Shown here piece by piece: positions 523 through 15,300 of a stretch of DNA of 20,000 nt. A program made the position numbers and the translations under genes. Under the pieces are notes generated by a model. That model was not told where the DNA came from. It saw only the letters and a list, made by a program, of their open reading frames with translations, and searched no databases. Numbering within the stretch: position 1 is the first letter of the stretch; each line of letters begins with the position of its first letter. The stretch comes from an uncultured virus (IMG/VR IMGVR_UViG_3300010429_002600) (lineage: Duplodnaviria; Heunggongvirae; Uroviricota; Caudoviricetes): the IMG/VR virus record IMGVR_UViG_3300010429_002600. One strand, 5' to 3'.

Positions 523-1134
523 ATGAAGCATAAAGTGGATCTTGATAAATTAAGAAATGACCTGAGAACAGGGAACTTGCAACCGTGGATGTGTGAAATC
601 CCGGGTTGCAGGGAACCTGTAATCTGGATGGATAAACCGGAAGAATGGGTGTCCTTCGGGAATAAAAAGGTCAATATAGGGGATGGAATGGGCCTTGTAT
701 ATAATACCTGTGAAAAATGTAAAAGAAAAATATGTATGGCATCTAAGGCAAGGCCAAGTAAAAATAATCTCCAGGGACTTCCTGAAGTATTTTACCCTCA
801 CGAAGAGCAATCGGCTTCGCTTCTACTTTCACCAACTGCCAAGGCAGCCAATGCAACCAAGTATCGGTTAGAGAACTATAATAAAGAAGCGACGAAAAGC
901 AATCAGCCTCTTCCGGAACATCTGAGGCATATTCAAAGGCCACAGAACAAACAGATAAAAGGCCATGTTTCAGCCCTTCCCGGCCCATTCAAAAATACAC
1001 CGCACTGTGGAGTGGAACGGTTCTGGGTTGACCACATGGATAAAATAAAACTCATCTGTTGCTGTCATCAATGTAAAGATGAGTACTGGGAAGATTTAAC
1101 TGAGGAGAAGAAGAAGCACCGTAAGGAAGAGTAA
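523..1134 (+). CDS. Hypothetical Cys-rich, probably Zn-binding protein (203 aa)
   Basis: AGGAGG at 512-517. Motifs CEIPGC, CEKCKRKIC, PHCG and CCCHQC. No family recognised. Confidence 0.75.
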   Translation: MKHKVDLDKLRNDLRTGNLQPWMCEIPGCREPVIWMDKPEEWVSFGNKKVNIGDGMGLVYNTCEKCKRKICMASKARPSKNNLQGLPEVFYPHEEQSASLLLSPTAKAANATKYRLENYNKEATKSNQPLPEHLRHIQRPQNKQIKGHVSALPGPFKNTPHCGVERFWVDHMDKIKLICCCHQCKDEYWEDLTEEKKKHRKEE

Positions 1135-1154: not shown

Positions 1155-2705
1155 GTGAAAGCAGTAATTTCCCCGATTGAAAAACGCAATGGCGAGATAA
1201 AGCCAAAATTTAAAGAAAAAATGTTATCCGAGATACAGAAGGCTTACACCTTAAGTAAGACGGAACTATTAAGGGGTAAGCCCTCTTATTCTCGTTTTTT
1301 GTTTTCTACAGATAACCCTCTCGATTCCTGCTGGTTAAATGACTTCCTTTATAAAACAATATCCTGGGTTTATGCCTGTGCTCAAAAGACCGCAAACAGT
1401 GCTGTAAATGCAGGATATAGTATTGTTCCCCGTAAAAAAGACGGGAAAGTAAAACCACAGATAGAGAAATTTTGTGAAGGATTAGATGAGTTCTTTAAAA
1501 ACGTCAATGAGGAACAGGTCTTTGAAGAACTCTTAAAACAATATCATATAGATGCCGCTATTAATGGAAAGGCGTATTTCATATTTGATTTCCTTGAAAA
1601 CCACCCTCCATTTAACACCCTGATTGCAATATACAGGGCAGACTTCAGAACTATAAAACCTGTCCGTATGGACCAATATTTACGGAACTTTCCTGAATTA
1701 AATGATCCTGAATTAGAACGCCATAAAAACACCCTCATTGGATGGGTGCAGCAGATATATGATGGAACAGATATGGAGAGTTTCCTTGAGCCAATGGGTA
1801 AACCGCAGGGTAAAGTAAAACCGCTAAATGCAGTCCCTTATGTTATGGGAGCAGGTCCGAATACAAGATACTTTTATCCGGAGCAGGTTCTTGAAGTAAA
1901 ATTAGATGCACAGGGAACCAGTCCTCTGGACTGTCTTATTCGTTCCCTGAAAACAGAAATCTCTGCTCAAGAATATACAAATTCCTACTTTGATAATTTC
2001 ACAAAAGCAGGCATAATTATGTCTCTTGAGGAAGGCAGTATTGGAGAAGCAGAGGTAAATAAACAATGGCTTAAGGAAGAGTATGGAGATCCGGCAAATG
2101 CCTATTCTCCTATGTTCTTAATCGGAGGAATTAAGCTTGTCAGAGACAGTGCTTCTACTGCTGATGTAAAATATCTGGAGATAAGGGAATTTAATAAGTT
2201 AGAAGTTTGTGGTGCTATGGGAACAGATCCCGTTTTACTCTCTTCTACGCAGGGTAAATCAGCAGAGAAAGAAGAGGCTCAAAGAGCGTTTGAAGAGGGA
2301 ACTGTTACTCCACGCTCTGTATTATTCTTCCGAAAATTAACAAAAAAGATAGAAGAAATATATCCGAAGTTTAAAGGGAAATTCGAGATAATCCCTGGTG
2401 TAAAAGGAAGAAGTTCACTGCACTTATTGAATATTGCGCAGAAAATGGCAATGGCTGGAGCTTCGACAAACGAGGTTCGTAGTCTTACAGGACTTCAGGA
2501 AATTGAAGGGCCTGTATATGACAAACCGCTTATGGCCGTAAATGTCCAGCCTATTCAGACAATAGAAGATGTTGCCAGAGCAACCATGCAGCCTCAAAAA
2601 CTTGTGGGAAATAAAGCAATGAAAGATAATAACCCCGGAGGAGGTCAACCCCGTAATGAAAATGTTCAGGGTGGCCGATCCGGTGTTTATAATGAACAGA
2701 GGTGA
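1155..2705 (+). CDS. Phage portal protein, HK97 type
   Basis: GTG start with GGAGGA at 1145-1150. Portal motifs WVYACAQKTA, NGKAYF, GTSPLDCL...AQEYTNSYFDN..AGII, YLEIREFNKLEVCGAMGTDPVLL and TNEVRSLTGLQEIEG; position before the protease and capsid genes. Confidence 0.93.
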   Translation: MKAVISPIEKRNGEIKPKFKEKMLSEIQKAYTLSKTELLRGKPSYSRFLFSTDNPLDSCWLNDFLYKTISWVYACAQKTANSAVNAGYSIVPRKKDGKVKPQIEKFCEGLDEFFKNVNEEQVFEELLKQYHIDAAINGKAYFIFDFLENHPPFNTLIAIYRADFRTIKPVRMDQYLRNFPELNDPELERHKNTLIGWVQQIYDGTDMESFLEPMGKPQGKVKPLNAVPYVMGAGPNTRYFYPEQVLEVKLDAQGTSPLDCLIRSLKTEISAQEYTNSYFDNFTKAGIIMSLEEGSIGEAEVNKQWLKEEYGDPANAYSPMFLIGGIKLVRDSASTADVKYLEIREFNKLEVCGAMGTDPVLLSSTQGKSAEKEEAQRAFEEGTVTPRSVLFFRKLTKKIEEIYPKFKGKFEIIPGVKGRSSLHLLNIAQKMAMAGASTNEVRSLTGLQEIEGPVYDKPLMAVNVQPIQTIEDVARATMQPQKLVGNKAMKDNNPGGGQPRNENVQGGRSGVYNEQR

Positions 2706-2709
2706 AATG

Positions 2710-3246
2710 ATGAAAGAAGCGACTATTGAGAATACAATCAGACACTTTATAGGTGAGGCATGGGAATACATACACCAGAATAAAGAGAAAATAAAGAATT
2801 TCGATAAAGCAAAAGAGAAAATAAAATCACAGGCATTTTTATTTGATGTAAAACTCCCTGAAGATTTAAATGTGGAACTTTCAAAGGCCAGTGCTGATAC
2901 TGGTCTTGGGATATTATATTTCATAGCTTCAAAGGCAGATATCTTTGATACACAGGGAGATATGATAGAACTGCCTGAACTTAAAAAGGCCGCTTTTTCC
3001 TTTGTGAAGAGAAGCAGAAAAGGAGACAGGAACCATAACTATAAAAAATCAGCAGAGGTTGTGGAGAGTTTTGTGTTTGATGAAAAGATAATTGAACTGA
3101 TTAAATCAGGAGAAATACAGGCCGGTGACTGGGTTGTCGGTATGCAGCCGCTTGACCCGGACCTTTTAGACAAAGCACAAAAGGGCCTTATCAAAGGAGC
3201 TTCTATTGCAGGAAGGGCAAAAAAGGAGGCTGTTCGTAATGCGTGA
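2710..3246 (+). CDS. Prohead (maturation) protease, XkdF/Peptidase S78-like, lacking the terminal 'S-x-V...N' segment
   Basis: DTQGDMIELPELKKAAFSF, DRNH (His), VVESFV, GDWVVG and KGLIKGASIAG (Ser) match XkdF-type proteases as I recall them. Start moved from 2656 to the ATG at 2710 (or 2707), just after GAGGTG at 2699-2704 and the portal stop. Confidence 0.85.
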   Translation: MKEATIENTIRHFIGEAWEYIHQNKEKIKNFDKAKEKIKSQAFLFDVKLPEDLNVELSKASADTGLGILYFIASKADIFDTQGDMIELPELKKAAFSFVKRSRKGDRNHNYKKSAEVVESFVFDEKIIELIKSGEIQAGDWVVGMQPLDPDLLDKAQKGLIKGASIAGRAKKEAVRNA

Positions 3247-3907
3247 GTACAAGTTAAAGGACTTAATCATAGATTGGATCTCAATCGTCGAAGACGAATC
3301 TGAGCCGGTCAACCCAGAAGCAAAATTGCTTATTGTAAAAAGTAAGGAGGGAAAGAACGAAATGGAAAAGAAGTCAAAAGTGTTGGACTTTCTTTATAGT
3401 CTTGTGGGAAATGTTGAAAAAGCGGAAACTGCTGATCCTACAGAATCGGAAGAAAAAACACCTTCAAATACAGAACCAGCACAGGAGCCTCAGTACTTAT
3501 CCAAAGCAGACTTTACGGCTGAAATGGAGAAGTTTAAAACTGACCTGATGGCCTCTGTTACGGAGGTTGTAACCAAAGCAACTGAAGTAGAAAAAGCATC
3601 CCGAAACGATATTTTCGCAGGGTTTGCAAAAGCCTATAAAGAAGATATGGAGACACTCAAAAAAGGTCTTGTCGGAGAGAAAAGGACTAATCCTCCTGTT
3701 CTTCCAGACGGCCCTGGTCTTGAGGACCTCTTCAAACATGCCATCCAGAAAAAGGTTAGCCTTCCTTCTGTGAATGGCACAGTGGTAGAAGATTTCATTA
3801 AAAGTGAGATCGAAAAAGGCACAATAGAAAGGGATAGATTCCCTATGCAGGAAACCCAGGCAGATAGAGTTTTCAAACTTGTCTGTGACATGGGAAATCA
3901 AGAGTAA
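3239..3907 (+). CDS. Protease C-terminal segment fused to a probable capsid scaffolding protein
   Basis: ATG at 3239 with AGGAGG at 3224-3229 and an 8-nt overlap with the protease gene. The N-terminus MREYKLKDLIIDWISIVEDESEPVNPEAKLLIVKS resembles the protease 'L..iS.V..paNp.A....vKs' segment. The rest is acidic and helical and lies directly upstream of the capsid gene. Confidence 0.75.
   Translation: MREYKLKDLIIDWISIVEDESEPVNPEAKLLIVKSKEGKNEMEKKSKVLDFLYSLVGNVEKAETADPTESEEKTPSNTEPAQEPQYLSKADFTAEMEKFKTDLMASVTEVVTKATEVEKASRNDIFAGFAKAYKEDMETLKKGLVGEKRTNPPVLPDGPGLEDLFKHAIQKKVSLPSVNGTVVEDFIKSEIEKGTIERDRFPMQETQADRVFKLVCDMGNQE
3344..3364 (+). promoter_or_regulatory. Internal in-frame translation start (AAGGAGG plus ATG 3362) for a nested scaffold-only product
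   Basis: AAGGAGG at 3344-3350, 11 nt before an in-frame ATG (MEKKSKVLDF) that directly follows the protease-like segment. Confidence 0.6.
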
Positions 3908-3923: not shown

Positions 3924-4925
3924 ATGAAAGGTTTTAATCCAATAGATATAGTTGAAACTTATCTCGAAAAGGCCAAACAGACGGCCACTACCGGGGCTAT
4001 GTTCCATACTCAGGATTTATCCCAGATAATTTACCTGGATGGAATCCCCGAACATAAGTTCTTACAAAGGTTAATGGTGGATGAAAACGTCAACGGAGAT
4101 CCCCATTACTGGAGTAAGATGTCTTATACAAGAGCAACAGGAACCGGAAGTCATTTTGACGATGGAGATAAACCCTCTGTATATTCCACTGCTCCAACCA
4201 GGACTTCGAACAACATTTATCAGGTTGGTAGATGTGCAGAAGTCACTGACAAACAGCTATTACTCTTTGCAAAAGCGTTTGGCGGTGTAGGTGGCGGAAC
4301 ATGGAAGATACACGGACCCGGCAATGCACTTCAGGCGTTCCAGAACGAACTCGAACTTCAGGTTAAGCTCCGGTTCATTGAACTGGTTGACGAAATAGCT
4401 GAAATTCTTGTCAATGGTGTAGGATCGACCACTCTTCCCGGAACTCAGGGATTAACTGATGTTCAGTGCGATGGTATGTTCCAGTTCTTAACTAATAACA
4501 CTGTGGATGCAAATGCCGCAGTATTAGATGAGAGCCATATCAAAACACTGGCAAAGGCAATCCGAGATAGAATGACCGGAAGATTTCCGCAGTATCTTTA
4601 TGTTAATAGCACCCAGAAAGGAACTATTAACAACTGGGCTACAAACATCTGGTTTGGCAGAAACAGAGAGCTGGAAGCAGGTAAAGACGTTTCTACCTTC
4701 AACACCGGATATTTCGTAGTTCAGATAGATATTGACGATCACATTCCAGTAGGAAGTTGTGCTATGATAGATCATTCCGTATGGTATAAGATGGACCTTT
4801 CTGGTATTATGATGAGTGAACTTGCCAGAATAAACACCACACTGGGCCGTATGATGACATATTATGGCACATTGAAATGTGGAACCGATCTCAGTTCTGG
4901 ACAGATATTCGACCTGGCTGCTTAA
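3924..4925 (+). CDS. Major capsid protein (HK97 fold; resembles the SU10/DUF5309 family)
   Basis: AAGGAGG at 3907-3913; 333 aa. Motifs SNNIYQVGRCAEVT, ELELQVKLRFIELVDEIAEILVNG, CDGMFQFL, YVNSTQKGTIN and ELARINT...YGTLKC...GQIFDL. Followed by a hairpin. Confidence 0.88.
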   Translation: MKGFNPIDIVETYLEKAKQTATTGAMFHTQDLSQIIYLDGIPEHKFLQRLMVDENVNGDPHYWSKMSYTRATGTGSHFDDGDKPSVYSTAPTRTSNNIYQVGRCAEVTDKQLLLFAKAFGGVGGGTWKIHGPGNALQAFQNELELQVKLRFIELVDEIAEILVNGVGSTTLPGTQGLTDVQCDGMFQFLTNNTVDANAAVLDESHIKTLAKAIRDRMTGRFPQYLYVNSTQKGTINNWATNIWFGRNRELEAGKDVSTFNTGYFVVQIDIDDHIPVGSCAMIDHSVWYKMDLSGIMMSELARINTTLGRMMTYYGTLKCGTDLSSGQIFDLAA

Positions 4926-4978: not shown

Positions 4979-6100
4979 ATGGTTTTTTTTATTTCTCCAC
5001 GATACCCTGAGTTGGAATTGCCCCTTCAGAAAAATGGAACTTACTGGAAGAATATTAAATTTGACAATCACTATTTCTGCACTTCAAACGACGAAGAAAT
5101 TGATGCTCTCCGCAAAATTATAGAACACAAAAAGAAAACGGGTAAAGAACTTTCTTTTCAGGAAACAAAAAATACAAAGGTTGATGAACACTCTCCTATG
5201 AAAATACTCTTTCACAGAGAAGGAGGTCTGGGAGATATTTTATTTACTCTGCCCATAGCGGAGTATTTACATTCTATAGGGCATACAGTGGATTACTATT
5301 GCCATTTTATGTTCTGGGATGTATTCAAAAACAATCCGAATATACGAAATATTTATGTTAATATAGAATTGAATAACTGGAGGAAAAAGGGATATCCTCC
5401 TCCCATGACAAAAGAATTGTATGGAACATATGACAGGCCGCTTACCTTCCGAGGCTGTATTGAAAAAAATAAATATGCTGAAGAAACACATGCAGTAGAT
5501 GCCTGTTATCACTGGGCAGGAATAGACCCTGAAGGAAAACCCAAACTTCCGAAACTATACCTTTCCAATGAAGAAAGAGCTGTTGTAAAAGAACGTCTAT
5601 TAAAAGAAAGAAAGATAAATCCGTATAAGAGAACAATAGCTCTGGCCCCTCATTCTTCTGGAGCCAGAAATAGAAGCTGGCAATACTGGAAAGAGTTTGC
5701 CGATGAAGCAAGCGAAGATTACAACATTATCATGATAAACAGAGGGGAGAGATTTTCTCCTTCTTCTGAGCCATGGACAGTAAGAGAAATGTGTGCTGTT
5801 ATAGATTTCTGTGATATTATGGTCTGTTGTGATACAGGACCCCTCCATGTTGCAGGGGCATTGAATAAACCCATAGTAACTCTTTTTGGTCCATTCAACC
5901 CGGATTTCAGAGTTAAATATTATAACAATGTTACAGTGCTCTGCAAAACCTCAGAGTTCTGTGAGTTCTGTTTTTCACATATGGATAAATGTAAGTATTT
6001 AAACCAATCCCGTGTATATCCGCCCTGTATGAACCATGCACCCCTGGATGTTTTACAGGCAGTAGAGGAGGCACTTTGCAGTGAAAGAGTATGCTGTTAG
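4979..6100 (+). CDS. Glycosyltransferase family 9 (heptosyltransferase-like, GT-B) with an extra N-terminal domain of about 73 aa
   Basis: GAGGTGA at 4966-4972. KILFHREGGLGDILFTLP, FKNNPNIRNI, CDTGPLHVAGALNKPIVTLFGP and C-terminal CEFC...C...PPCM are GT9 hallmarks. Confidence 0.93.
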   Translation: MVFFISPRYPELELPLQKNGTYWKNIKFDNHYFCTSNDEEIDALRKIIEHKKKTGKELSFQETKNTKVDEHSPMKILFHREGGLGDILFTLPIAEYLHSIGHTVDYYCHFMFWDVFKNNPNIRNIYVNIELNNWRKKGYPPPMTKELYGTYDRPLTFRGCIEKNKYAEETHAVDACYHWAGIDPEGKPKLPKLYLSNEERAVVKERLLKERKINPYKRTIALAPHSSGARNRSWQYWKEFADEASEDYNIIMINRGERFSPSSEPWTVREMCAVIDFCDIMVCCDTGPLHVAGALNKPIVTLFGPFNPDFRVKYYNNVTVLCKTSEFCEFCFSHMDKCKYLNQSRVYPPCMNHAPLDVLQAVEEALCSERVCC

Positions 6101-6950
6101 TGTTATAGTTTTAGTCCATAATAATGAGGATGTTTTACTTCCTCTTTGTAAGTCTATTTCACGAAATACTAAATATTCAGTGAAGTTGATTTATGTTGAC
6201 AACGCCTCAGAGGATGGTTCTGTGGACTTTCTCAGGAGATATTATTCTGATAAGCATGAAACAGGGTATATACTGGAAGTAGACCGGAACCTGGGTGTAT
6301 CAAAGGGGTGGAATGAAGGAATTAAGTTTTTGAGAAACCAGCGTTCTCCGCAGGATTTTATTGTTATAATGAACTCAGATCTGGAGGTAGGAGAAAACTG
6401 GCTTATTCCAATGCTGGAAGTTTTTGAGAAATATCCTGATGCCGGGATGGTTGATAATATTCTGAAATGTTCCAGGATGAGAAGTTTTATTCAGTCTGAT
6501 GGCCCGAAACTTTCAGATCCTTTTCATTATGAAATGTCACACCATCCGGGGTTTAGACCAAACACTTCTGTTATTCCTGTTCAATGGGGAACACTTGCCT
6601 GTGCTATGTTTAATGGAAAAGTCTTTGATGAGATAGGCCTGTTTGATGAAAATTTCTTTATTTATTCTTCAGACTTTGATTTTCAGTTAAGACTAAAGCA
6701 GGCAGGCTATAATATATATCACACCCCTCATTCTCATTGCTTTCACAGGGCCTTTCATACCTGCACACAGGTAAAGAGGAAAAATGAAAAGATTGCCCGA
6801 TTTATGGGAGAAGACGGAAATTACTTTAATCAAAAATGGTCAGCAAAGTCTATGATGGATTTTAAAAAAAACCTGGCATCTTCACCAAAACGATTTCTAC
6901 AAGAACTTTATGGAGAAACTAATTATGAAGTCTCTATTCGCCCATTTTAA
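6081..6950 (+). CDS. Glycosyltransferase family 2 (WbbL/rhamnosyltransferase-like subgroup)
   Basis: GTG start with GAGGAGG at 6065-6071. SVIVLVHN, VDNASEDGS, NLGVSKGWNEG, MNSDL and FDEIGLFDENFFIYSSDFDFQLRLKQAGY. Confidence 0.93.
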   Translation: MKEYAVSVIVLVHNNEDVLLPLCKSISRNTKYSVKLIYVDNASEDGSVDFLRRYYSDKHETGYILEVDRNLGVSKGWNEGIKFLRNQRSPQDFIVIMNSDLEVGENWLIPMLEVFEKYPDAGMVDNILKCSRMRSFIQSDGPKLSDPFHYEMSHHPGFRPNTSVIPVQWGTLACAMFNGKVFDEIGLFDENFFIYSSDFDFQLRLKQAGYNIYHTPHSHCFHRAFHTCTQVKRKNEKIARFMGEDGNYFNQKWSAKSMMDFKKNLASSPKRFLQELYGETNYEVSIRPF

Positions 6951-7914
6951 AAACCTGTGGGATTTTAAAGATAGGGTTGATATGACCCGGCTCAACTTTC
7001 ACACCGCACCTTTAGCGGTGGAACTGGATTTGACAAACCAGTGTGGACATGATTGTCCATGGTGTTTGAATAAAGGATTTCGGTATAAGACACCAACTTC
7101 TTTAAAATCAAAGATAGTTTTTCCCCTATTGAAAGAGTTAAAGGAAATGGGTGTTGTTTTTATAGTCTTTTCCGGAGGAGGGGAACCGCTTCAGCATAAT
7201 CAGTTTCCCTTGTTCTTACAAAAAGCTATGGAACTGGGTCTTAAAACAGGACTGATAACTAATGGAGAAGGTCTTTTAAAGAACATTGAAACCATACGAA
7301 AATGTGATTTTGTGGAAATATCTCTGGATGCTGGAGGGTATGAAACACATAAGAAATTACATAAATCAGATCCCATGTCTTATTCAAATATAATTCAGGG
7401 AATAAAGAAACTTACAAATGTTACGGTTTCATTCCTTGCAAATGCCCAAAACTATTTCGAAATACCCCGGCTGATAGAATCGCTCTTAATTATAGGGGTA
7501 AAGAAACTACATATAAAACCTGCTATAATCAAGGGTTATACCTTATCAAAGCGGTTGGAAGATGAAATATTTGAAATGATAGAAAGTCAAAAAGAATTAT
7601 TATCCGGAGGAAAACTGGAGGTTTCTTTTGACCCTGAATATTTCCAGGAGTCTGAGAATATGAAATGTTTTTCTCAGGGATTAGTTTCTGTTGTATGTGC
7701 AGACAGTAATGTTTATCTCTGTCCATTTCTCAGGGGAAAAGCGAAATTTTCACTGGGAGATTTGAGAGAGCAGAGTTTTAAAGCAATCTGGGAAGGTGCG
7801 AAAAGAAAAGAAATATTTTCTCAATTAGATGTTTCCAGATGCCCCTCCTGTCGGTATAAAGAGTACAACAGAATAATAAATGCCCTTAACAGAAAGGAGA
7901 TGAATTATCTGTGA
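6925..7914 (+). CDS. Radical SAM enzyme with a C-terminal twitch/SPASM-type Fe-S domain
   Basis: LTNQCGHDCPWC (CxxxCxxC), SGGGEP, ITNG and ISLDA; C-terminal Cx17Cx39Cx2C with LGDLREQSFKAIW. Start is 6925 (GGAG at 6912-6915) or 6910. Confidence 0.93.
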   Translation: MKSLFAHFKNLWDFKDRVDMTRLNFHTAPLAVELDLTNQCGHDCPWCLNKGFRYKTPTSLKSKIVFPLLKELKEMGVVFIVFSGGGEPLQHNQFPLFLQKAMELGLKTGLITNGEGLLKNIETIRKCDFVEISLDAGGYETHKKLHKSDPMSYSNIIQGIKKLTNVTVSFLANAQNYFEIPRLIESLLIIGVKKLHIKPAIIKGYTLSKRLEDEIFEMIESQKELLSGGKLEVSFDPEYFQESENMKCFSQGLVSVVCADSNVYLCPFLRGKAKFSLGDLREQSFKAIWEGAKRKEIFSQLDVSRCPSCRYKEYNRIINALNRKEMNYL

Positions 7915-12309: not shown

Positions 12310-15300
12310 ATGGCAAGCCCGTTCATTAAAGGCACTGTAGAAGTAGAACTGATAACAAGCAAGGTTCGGGAGGAATTAGCAGAATTAAATTCTCTTGTAA
12401 CAAAAACACTGAAAGAAATCGGGGCTACCCCACTCAAGATTGATATAACACTTCCCACTGGATTGTCCGGAGAATTAAGTACTTTGGCCCCGTCTCTTTC
12501 TGCTGTTTCAAAAGAACTAACTCTTTTTAATAAAGCAATGTCCGGGTTAAGTGCTGTAAATGCAGCAAAACTTAAAAATATAGCCTCTACATTAAGCCAG
12601 ATAGATAGTATAAAACTTCCTCAGATAACAGGCGGTGCAGATTTCGGAACATTTGCGAAGTCTGTTGGTATGCTTGGTAAAATTGACAGTGGTAAAATTG
12701 CTAATGAGCTTACAGGCATAGCAAACGCCATTGGTCAAATTAAATTTAATATCACCCCACAGCAGGTCGCACTTCTGGAAAGATTTGCCAATGCCCTTCA
12801 GTTATTGAAAAATGTCAGTCCTAATGCTCGTCTATATTCAAACTTACAAAAAATTAATCAGCAGTTAGCAAAGCAGGTGTCACAGCAAGAGAAGATAAAT
12901 CAACAGCAAAAACAGTCCCAGGATATACTTGGCCGTATCGGGGGCGGAATTGTTGGAATGGTAAAAGATTTCGGCCAGATGATTGTCCAGCAGGCCACCT
13001 ATGCGGCAGTATGGACTGTAATCTTTGGAACTATCCAGGGCATTAAAAATACTATTCGTGAGGGCGTTGATCTCTTCAAAGAACTGGATAAAGGCGTTGG
13101 TCGTGTTCTTGCCACTGGATTATCAGCAGAACAGGCACAAAACGCTTTTACGGAAATGTTAGGTCCTGATGCAATAAAAGGAGGAAAAGAATATACAGAT
13201 AGCCTCCGTCAAATAGTTCAGCTTCAGGCATTAGCCTTTTCCACAAAGTATTCTGCCTCTCTTGAAGAATATACAAATGCTATGTATGAGTTGGTTTCCG
13301 CAAATATTGAAATGGGTAATGCCCTTGACTTTACAGATACTTCAATGAAACTGGCTCTTGCAACCCAGGCTGATATTCAGGAAACCACCAGAAGCATGGC
13401 AGGTCTTTATAATATCTTTGGAGATACTATTAAAGATGTTTCTACAGAACAGGAAAAATTTCAGCAAATATCAAATGTGGTCTTATATACGTGGTCAAAA
13501 GAACAGATGGAACTTACTGAGTTAAATACAGCATTGAAATATTCCGGTAATGTGGCAAGATTGGCAGGAGTTGACTATAAACTTCTCGTCACAATGATAG
13601 GACATTTGAATACATATTTAATCAGGAGTTCTACAGCAGGAACAGGTTTTAGAGCGTTCTTGGCCGAGAGTGGTAAAGACATTAAGGGCGTTGCTGATTT
13701 AGCAATGCAATTAGGCCCGGATCTGGATGAGGTTAAAACAAAATTTAACCTTGCATTTAACCCTAATGCCCCGGCTGATGTTTTGGGTGTTTTGAAAGTA
13801 TTAAGGGAAAGGGTTATTGATTACGCAAAAGACACAGGCGAGTCTGGAGAAAAGATTAAATTAACTCTTGGTCAAATAGGTAAGTTTATGGAGGCATACG
13901 GACTGAGGGCCGGTAACGTAGTGGCTCAATTAGTCCTGACTCTCCCTGAACTGGAAAAGAAATATAAGAATGTTCTTGATCTCCAGGATGATTATATAGA
14001 TAGTTTTGTAAGATTAAATCAACTGAATGTTTCGGATCAGTTTAATATATTAACCCGGAACCTCAAATTAGTTCCTGCTGCTTTCCTTCTTGGCATGGAA
14101 CATGGGAAAGATTTTGCCATTGCTCTTGAAAGTATAAATGCTGGATTTGAGGCAATTATTCAGACTATTTATAAATGGGGAATGTCTTTTTCTAAATATT
14201 GGGGAGATGCGGCTGATTTGATTGCAGAAAATCAACCGATAATTGATGAGGTTATTTCTGAATTTTTTGAATGGGGTAAAATCCTGGGGGAAACTGTTGT
14301 CAACATCATTGGCTTGGTTTCTGTGTTAAGCCCGGTCCTTTCACTTTTAAATGATTTTCTTAAAATTATAATAAGTTTATCAAATGCCCTTGTTGCTTTT
14401 GGCCTTATCGTTGCAAACGTGTTTACAAGTTTTGGCGAAATTATTATTGCCGCCGTAAGACTTATTGCCGATTCTATAGGTTCTGTCATTGAATATCTTC
14501 AGCAAGCAGGACAGCTAATGCGGATGCAAAAAGAAAACTTTGATAATTTTCTTTTGGGGAAAAAACAGCATTATTCTTATTCAACCCTAAAAGGATTTTT
14601 TGAGGATATGAACGATCAGTGGGATAAATCCTCAATTTTTGCCGAAGCATCTTTTGAAGATGCCTTAAATAATATTGCTAAAAAAGGAAGGTTTACCTTT
14701 AAGCTTTTGGGAGAGAACTTTTGGGATTCTTTAGGAAGTTTAGCGGGAGCATCCGGTGCCGATCAATTTTCAATTACTTTAGAGAGCTTAAAAGATAAAT
14801 TTTTTGGGTTGTCTACAATACCTAAAGATATTTTAGATGCTATTATCAAAACCTCCAGGGGTTCAGAGGCAGAAATGGAAAGAGTCAACAATTTTATGCG
14901 AGCCTTTGGACAAGAATTTGTTGAATTTGATATTAATTCAAAGAAATTTGAAGAAGATTTAGACGGTATTATTCGAACCATTCAGGATGAAGCAATGATG
15001 GCCGCCTCTACGGATTTAGCCTCCGGCATTTCAGTGCTGGTGGATGGTATGCAGAAGGCTTATAAGGGTGTTCGAGTGGCCTATGCGGGAGAAAGTCCTT
15101 TTATTAAAGAAATGGCAAATGCCGAGAAGTTCAGGGGGGCATTGACAAATCTTACAGAGGAGTACAATGCAACCTTATATAAACTATATAAAAAGGCGGC
15201 TGATATGCCGGATTGGTTGCCGGGTGCAGGGGAAAATACGAAAAAAGGATTAGGTTGGTTGGGCCTTGAACTTACCCCGGAGGCAGTTGCAGAGGGCAAG

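Follow-up and report, generated by a model that had tools for sequence, protein, structure and literature searches.

A prohead protease core and its strand module are encoded by two adjacent genes in an uncultivated Caudoviricetes virus and its relatives

The stretch of DNA analysed here, called the window, corresponds to 20,000 nucleotides (nt) of the IMG/VR record IMGVR_UViG_3300010429_002600, an uncultivated Caudoviricetes virus, and all positions are counted within it. Pfam matches and the list of open reading frames (ORFs) delineate a phage head module on the + strand, in the order portal gene, ORF1, ORF2 and major capsid gene. The pair formed by ORF1 and ORF2 is the subject of this study. 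ORF1 is predicted to encode the core of an XkdF-type prohead serine protease, and a conserved strand module of the same protease family is found not in ORF1 but at the beginning of ORF2, a scaffold-like protein encoded by the next, overlapping gene. The features of the locus are the following.

1155..2705, + strand: portal gene (PF04860, E 1.1e-21)
2710..3246, + strand: ORF1, predicted XkdF-type prohead serine protease core, 178 amino acids (aa) (PF14550, PHROG 3017)
3219..3224, + strand: A6 run within the ORF1 tail, genuine sequence, neither an error nor a recoding site
3223..3229, + strand: Shine-Dalgarno (SD) sequence AAGGAGG of ORF2, within the 3' end of ORF1, with a spacer of 9 nt to the ATG
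3239..3907, + strand: ORF2, long form, scaffold-like, 222 aa, between the protease and capsid genes
3239..3343, + strand: strand module, ORF2 residues 1-35, MREYKLKDLIIDWISIVEDESEPVNPEAKLLIVKS (A4 alignment, hhalign)
3344..3350, + strand: internal AAGGAGG, separated by 11 nt from the in-frame ATG 3362, with the same arrangement in the related locus L002
3362..3907, + strand: candidate short scaffold starting at M42, 181 aa, without the module, proposed from the internal AGGAG-ATG pattern
3924..4925, + strand: major capsid protein gene (PF17236 SU10_MCP, E 6.7e-22)

The assignment of ORF1 as an XkdF-type prohead serine protease core is a prediction from several sequence comparisons. ORF1 scores 74.8 bits with PF14550 (Peptidase_S78_2, XkdF), for which the cut-off is 24 (profile positions 12-125 of 126, E 8.1e-21), it also matches PHROG 3017, head maturation protease (E 1.5e-15), and its gene lies between the portal and major capsid genes, as for an XkdF-type protease. 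His109 and Ser165, the latter within the GASIAG motif, are the same in every member of set A1 (5 sequences) and of set A3 (14 sequences); their aligned counterparts in the single-chain relative P0071 are H92 and S146. The protein reads ...NHNYKK...GASIAGRAKKEAVRNA and stops, with the C-terminus RAKKEAVRNA, 10 residues past GASIAG (G168 being the last residue of the motif), where an earlier note on this DNA had counted 9. Residues 1-52 correspond to an N-terminal extension, modelled as two helices; an alternative start at 2692 is possible, as in the database cluster P0001. When ORF1 is compared by hhalign with the single-chain XkdF set A5 (99.7%, E 8e-26), only its residues 53-177 are aligned, to residues 37-158 of P0071. 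Consistently, a hidden Markov model of the module finds a match in ORF2 (E 5e-12) and none in ORF1 which, unlike single-chain XkdF, has no scaffold-like helical extension past the Ser motif. No match of ORF1 to the HK97-type family PF04586 (Peptidase_S78) was seen at E<=1, sequence searches of the PDB with ORF1 and with profile A3 gave nothing relevant, and a viral contig scan with ORF1 alone found no relative. Genome contigs yielded one 21-residue match, in an actinobacterial genome, and a search for longer proteins yielded one match, P0007, which carries the module ahead of the core.

ORF2 opens with MREYKLKDLIIDWISIVEDESEPVNPEAKLLIVKS, in which a conserved pattern I-S-x-V...P-x-N...V-K can be recognised. 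Across the 13 downstream N-termini of alignment A4, I11, S15, V17, A28 and K34 are invariant and L6 and N25 nearly so. Alignment of A4 with A5 (23 single-chain XkdF-type proteins) pairs the two N-termini (hhalign 94.2%, E 1.1e-7); the N-terminus of P0071, MPRKLSEINVDWISLVKAGANGKTVILKG, matches the opening of ORF2, and the S, V and N positions are invariant whether the module stands in cis or in trans. These comparisons show that the N-terminus of ORF2 is homologous to the N-terminal module of XkdF, apart from a 3-residue insert in the ORF2 module, and they bear out the placement of this segment in XkdF that the earlier note had given. The same note had placed it after the G-x-S-x-G motif in HK97-type chains. 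This also holds, with a weak score: the module aligns to residues 139-163 of HK97 gp4 (LREISVCTFPANEQAGIAAMKSVDG), about 25 residues past the Ser motif GMSVGF. Moreover, sub-threshold PF04586 matches at profile positions 130-157 of 165 occur in two of seven related downstream ORFs, and weak matches of several downstream ORFs to PHROGs annotated as 'head maturation protease' begin near profile position 103 or 156. The module thus appears to correspond to the segment that follows the Ser in HK97 gp4.

One fold therefore occurs in three layouts. In HK97 gp4 (PF04586), the order is His...Ser...module, collinear with ORF1 followed by ORF2, but gp4 is a single chain, whereas in the window the stop codon at 3244-3246 and a change of frame separate the core from the module. 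Single-chain XkdF proteins (PF14550; PBSX XkdF-like; P0071, P0046 and 22 others) have the same catalytic core, the same module sequence and a helical scaffold-like tail, joined in one chain in the order module, core, scaffold; in the window, the core has an upstream gene to itself and the module is directly attached to the scaffold. As for ORF2 as a whole, a search of the protein collection recovered nothing but the protein itself, tblastn against phage records was without a match, neither Pfam nor PHROG offered a family, and the Atlas search gave nothing at 0.9 or more. Its counterparts in relatives are coiled-coil-like. Seven of these (in L004, L016, L017, L020, L021, L024 and L027) carry a Cys-rich motif P-C-x2-C-x5-6-C-x4-5-C just past the module (~35-60), which the ORF2 of the window lacks.

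The two genes overlap by 8 nt, the ATG of ORF2 occupying 3239-3241 and the stop of ORF1 3244-3246. ORF2 lies in the +1 frame relative to ORF1, since (3239-2710) mod 3 = 1, and has its own AAGGAGG, so that the earlier description of a protease split over two overlapping genes stands. With its SD sequence inside the end of ORF1 and the 8-nt overlap, ORF2 is predicted to be translationally coupled to ORF1.

Two alternative origins of this arrangement had been envisaged. Homopolymer runs are prone to error, and deletion of one A from the A6 run at 3219-3224 would join the ORF1 and ORF2 frames into a continuous one; the true genome might then have five As and a single fused ORF. However, two further DNA runs, each from a different study, provide contigs (not raw reads) that bridge the A6 run with no gap while carrying substitutions of their own: 11 in X4 record 8, which spans 2751-3627, and 7 in X6 record 13, which spans 3091-3350. 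A second assembly, L001, is identical to the window, though not independent of it. The strain-variant substitutions are synonymous in the annotated frames in 18 of 22 cases (12 of 14 for ORF1, 6 of 8 for ORF2), which indicates purifying selection in both frames. Moreover, a fused reading would destroy a C-terminus that the family conserves in frame 0: the tail of ORF1 matches the consensus G.S..G..(K/R)RE.V, P0020 ends with GFSIGGSAKREAVK, the 14 relatives of A3 have the consensus ..RRExV, and the four closest relatives (43-50% identity) likewise stop 8-19 residues past GASIAG. As the split is also kept in distant relatives, the probability of a sequencing or assembly error is practically negligible.

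The second origin would be a programmed +1 (or -1) frameshift near the A-run, giving one protease-scaffold chain. The +1 frame of ORF2, open from 3206, is compatible with such an event, and the register of the heptamer A_AAA_AAG (3219-3225) would permit a -1 slip; however, the frame reached by a -1 slip stops four codons on and differs from that of ORF2, which, in addition, has its own AAGGAGG 9 nt before its ATG. The related locus L002 is instructive in this respect. Its protease, 44% identical to ORF1, ends with GASIAGRGVLIDED. The ORF that follows it, likewise in the +1 frame, begins with MKINPVKKMRKILKDLKIDFISIVEGEMDPVNQDATTLFVKS (...MRKILKDLKIDFISIVEGEMDPVNQDATTLFVKS), but a TAG directly precedes the ATG of that ORF and there is no A-run. 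Relatives lack the A-run, and among the related loci every relative frame is found, an in-frame stop included, the downstream ORF having an SD sequence and a start codon of its own in each case. Frameshifting is thus very improbable as an explanation of the split. Taken together, the contigs bridging the A6 run, the conserved frame-0 tail and the sharing of the split by L002 and other loci led to the rejection of both origins.

The distribution of the split was established from a viral contig scan with the alignment of 14 relatives. It returned 33 loci, of which 29 were analysed together with L002, the weakest or partial ones (L033-L036) being left out. The module was found just downstream of the protease match by regular expression in 29 of these 30 loci; in the thirtieth, L032, a variant EISLVDEPAS... 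was recognised by eye. After removal of near-duplicates (L005, L008, L009, L015, L018, L019, L022, L023, L026 and L028), 21 rows remain. In every one, the next ORF (222-353 aa) opens with M, about 10 residues and then (E)ISLVDDPAN..ARVvIVKAK. Its frame relative to the protease is 0 in 7 rows, +1 in 5 and +2 in 9, and every one of these ORFs starts at a codon of its own, in many cases with a GGAGG within the last codons of the protease. Two cultured phages show the same layout. In Roseobacter phage RDJL6, the protease ends with GFSIGGHWLKEED and the next gene starts with ...KALKIAEISGVDVPAQEGAKALIMKR (UFK26761.1 and UFK26762.1), and in Vibrio phage vB_VhaS-MS01 the next gene starts with ...AEASYISVVDRGANRLPIRMLKNEG and is followed by the capsid gene. 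In both GenBank records, the module-bearing gene is annotated as a hypothetical protein. Because the pattern recurs in L002, in the other viral loci and in two cultured phages, it is not due to chance: the split is natural and conserved, and homologous phages keep it, as the earlier note had asked. The Vibrio phage protease (L038, 1801-2412) has an extra His-rich tail of ~80 aa past the Ser motif (HKHRF...GHMHY...GHTHVF) and still precedes a gene that opens with the module.

When ORF1 was used in an exhaustive search without a profile, a family of 949 members was obtained at E<=0.001, and the presence of the module was recorded in the best 149 of these, the window's own protein excluded. The module stands in cis in 24 of the 149, always N-terminal to the core. 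It is absent from 113 proteins that end within 30 residues of the Ser motif and from 12 others with a longer tail. The two-gene layout thus seems to be the majority form in the neighbourhood of the ORF1 protease (113 of 149 representatives). More than 100 aa precede the core in 65 of the 113 module-less representatives, up to ~1,120 aa, and the closest relatives, P0003 and P0004, carry a ChaB-like domain (PF06150) at their N-terminus. These additions, seen also in P0026, P0080, P0087 and others, look like fused cargo.

An unrooted FastTree phylogeny of 151 core domains indicates how the layouts are distributed within the family. The form with the N-terminal module in cis requires 2 changes on this tree, against a mean of 22.6 after shuffling, and none of 500 shuffles gave a value as low. 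The protease of the window falls in supported clades of 13 and 66 rows, none of which has the module in cis. Clustering of the single-chain form within a large and diverse module-less set argues that the split is a widespread and stable state rather than a rare intermediate; as the tree is unrooted, it does not give the direction of change and so does not decide on the fission intermediate of the permutation that the earlier note had envisaged.

Structural models give some indication of where the module might stand. The AlphaFold2 model of the single-chain relative P0071 has a mean predicted local distance difference test score (pLDDT) of 80.5. In this model, the module forms a 14-residue strand (3-16) followed by a short strand (26-28) with a pLDDT of 95, the linker between module and core is disordered (pLDDT <50), the core reaches 93-98 and the Ser motif lies inside a 12-residue strand (144-155). 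That the module is confidently predicted despite a disordered linker suggests that it packs on the core. The P0071 model matches T4 gp21 (5jbl_B; Z 9.5, root-mean-square deviation 3.0, 119 of 164 residues aligned), the next unrelated match having a Z of 5.1 and the human cytomegalovirus protease a Z of 4.2. This sequential alignment covers residues 20-159 of the model, so that the equivalent of the module in gp21 is not placed. In contrast to that of its single-chain relative, which matches the fold of T4 gp21 (5jbl) and of herpesvirus assemblin, the model of ORF1 alone has no informative match: Foldseek against the PDB gave no sensible hit, and the wide VIA-align search gave only generic matches to the N-terminal helical hairpin 1-47. 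The ORF1 model is poor (pLDDT 69.3, predicted template modelling score 0.40), with a Ser region that is mostly coil (pLDDT 51-56). This would fit a missing partner strand, a comparison confounded by the shallower alignment available for ORF1.

A further feature of ORF2 is a possible second start. Its in-frame ATG at 3362 (M42) is preceded by AAGGAGG (3344-3350) with an 11-nt spacer, and AAGGAGG, 11 nt and ATG recur identically in L002. The + strand of the window contains seven AAGGAGG sites, four before gene starts, the one at 3344-3350 and two inside other genes; the latter lie at 5220-5226 in a GT9-like glycosyltransferase gene and at 13178-13184 in the tape-measure gene. Among 18 related downstream ORFs, 14 have an in-frame AGGAG, ~6 nt and ATG at codons 64-118. 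Such internal sites amount to 16 in 2160 codons, versus 2 in 23195 codons of the other ORFs of the same loci, an enrichment of ~86-fold among loci that are related and not independent. This conserved pattern suggests that a short scaffold without the module may also be made from M42. In two metatranscriptomes, RNA contigs with depths of 24 and 21 begin at 3282 and 3262, respectively, and run into the capsid gene, whereas the RNA contigs over the protease gene have depths of 2-6. The step in depth hints weakly that the short scaffold and the capsid protein might have an RNA of their own, present in larger amounts. The interval 3225-3261 is uncovered by RNA contigs in both runs, and no conclusion is drawn from it.

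What has to be explained is therefore a conserved layout of two genes, one for a core that lacks the module and one for a scaffold-like protein that carries a homologous module. It can be proposed, with a probability of roughly 0.6, that ORF1 and ORF2 form a genuine two-gene prohead protease of the XkdF/HK97 type in which the module docks in trans on the core and serves as a tether to the scaffold, while a short scaffold is produced from M42. The module would dock beside the strand that bears the Ser. Docking would tether the protease, together with anything fused to its N-terminus, to the scaffold and so build it into the procapsid, and it might also stabilise the active conformation of the protease or even be required for it. 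Initiation at M42 would supply the bulk of the scaffold without the module, so that only some scaffold molecules would carry protease, and tethering to this subset would limit each procapsid to a few copies of the enzyme. The long N-terminal extensions and the ChaB-like domain of module-less proteases further suggest that the same hook may load cargo.

A number of points weigh against this proposal. Proteases reduced to 107-135 aa, with no module, are frequent, and the core could thus be self-sufficient. The correspondence with HK97 gp4 is weak when taken alone (E 0.009, probability 4.5% against the single sequence), and ORF2 has no PF04586 match at E<=1. The scaffold role of ORF2 is proposed from its gene position and from its coiled-coil-like relatives, with no family match. 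The models of ORF1 and P0071 were built from alignments of different depth (14 versus 23 sequences) and concern different proteins. As to the short form, it is read from a sequence pattern, the two RNA contig ends are 20 nt apart and the metatranscriptomes may share one campaign, and a promoter scan found no sigma-70-like promoter in 3200-3362.

A stronger version of the proposal would be a true two-chain enzyme. The scaffold strand, with its invariant Ser and Asn, would then form the active site by Ser165, and ORF1 would remain a zymogen until it meets the long scaffold in the procapsid; such a strand-complementation switch would operate across much of the XkdF family and would also load cargo. 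This version is considered doubtful.

The main alternative, hardly less doubtful, is that the core is complete and active alone. The module would then be an independent element: the protease might recognise or cut it (for example at the invariant V-K) or be inhibited by it as by a pseudo-substrate, or it might be a motif for scaffold oligomerisation or capsid binding. The many minimal family members with no module in cis speak for such a possibility, as does the PF14550 model, which excludes the module (P0046 is matched only from residue 45). Moreover, terminal peptides can have regulatory functions: in T4 gp21, the N-terminal region is reported to block the preactive form of the protease itself (PMC9958956). 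However, the module belongs to one chain with the core both in HK97 gp4, where it follows the Ser, and in XkdF-type proteins, where it is N-terminal and forms the strand with a pLDDT of 95. In addition, the module varies at S, V and N neither in cis nor in trans, and the module-less proteases had the module in the next gene wherever that gene was visible.

How prohead proteases enter the procapsid in small numbers and are kept quiet until assembly is an open question for most phages. The layout described here offers a simple answer, in which a piece of the fold placed on the scaffold would ensure that the enzyme is docked, and perhaps completed, only there. Nested genes are a known way of linking protease and scaffold: in lambda C/Nu3 and in herpesvirus UL26/UL26.5, a minority long product, linked to the protease function, is accompanied by a short scaffold, the majority product, whose translation starts in frame at an internal codon. 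The candidate long (M1) and short (M42) products of ORF2 would resemble this arrangement. In those systems, however, the long product holds the whole protease, whereas that of ORF2 would hold the strand module only, the protease core being a chain of its own. Another study reports that the capsid maturation module has a conserved expression strategy (PMC11565193), and HK97 is described in a third as having no separate scaffold protein, the scaffold being a domain of the capsid protein (PMC10275583). Thus, the enzyme family and the linkage of scaffold and protease are known. A prohead protease split from its strand module, so that the scaffold gene encodes a conserved part of the protease fold, was not found described in the literature searched, which included PMC9958956 and PMC7824862 but no subscription-only papers or supplements. 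Recognition of the layout, whose downstream gene is annotated as a hypothetical protein in the two cultured phages, would improve the annotation of many phage genomes. Loading of cargo by the same hook, if true, would matter both to phage biology and to engineered encapsulation.

Other genes of the window deserve mention. A Cys-rich ORF of ~205 aa without a Pfam match adjoins the portal gene upstream, both in the window (523-1134) and in L002 (1797-2429). The head gene block of the window also contains the GT9-like glycosyltransferase mentioned above (4979-6100; PF01075, E 3.6e-14), a GT2 glycosyltransferase (6081-6950; PF00535, E 3e-20) and a radical SAM/SPASM protein (6910-7914), all three lying between the capsid gene and the head-tail genes, and a further GT2 fragment is found at 1-486. 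The glycosyltransferase and radical SAM genes may form a module for virion glycosylation or peptide modification.

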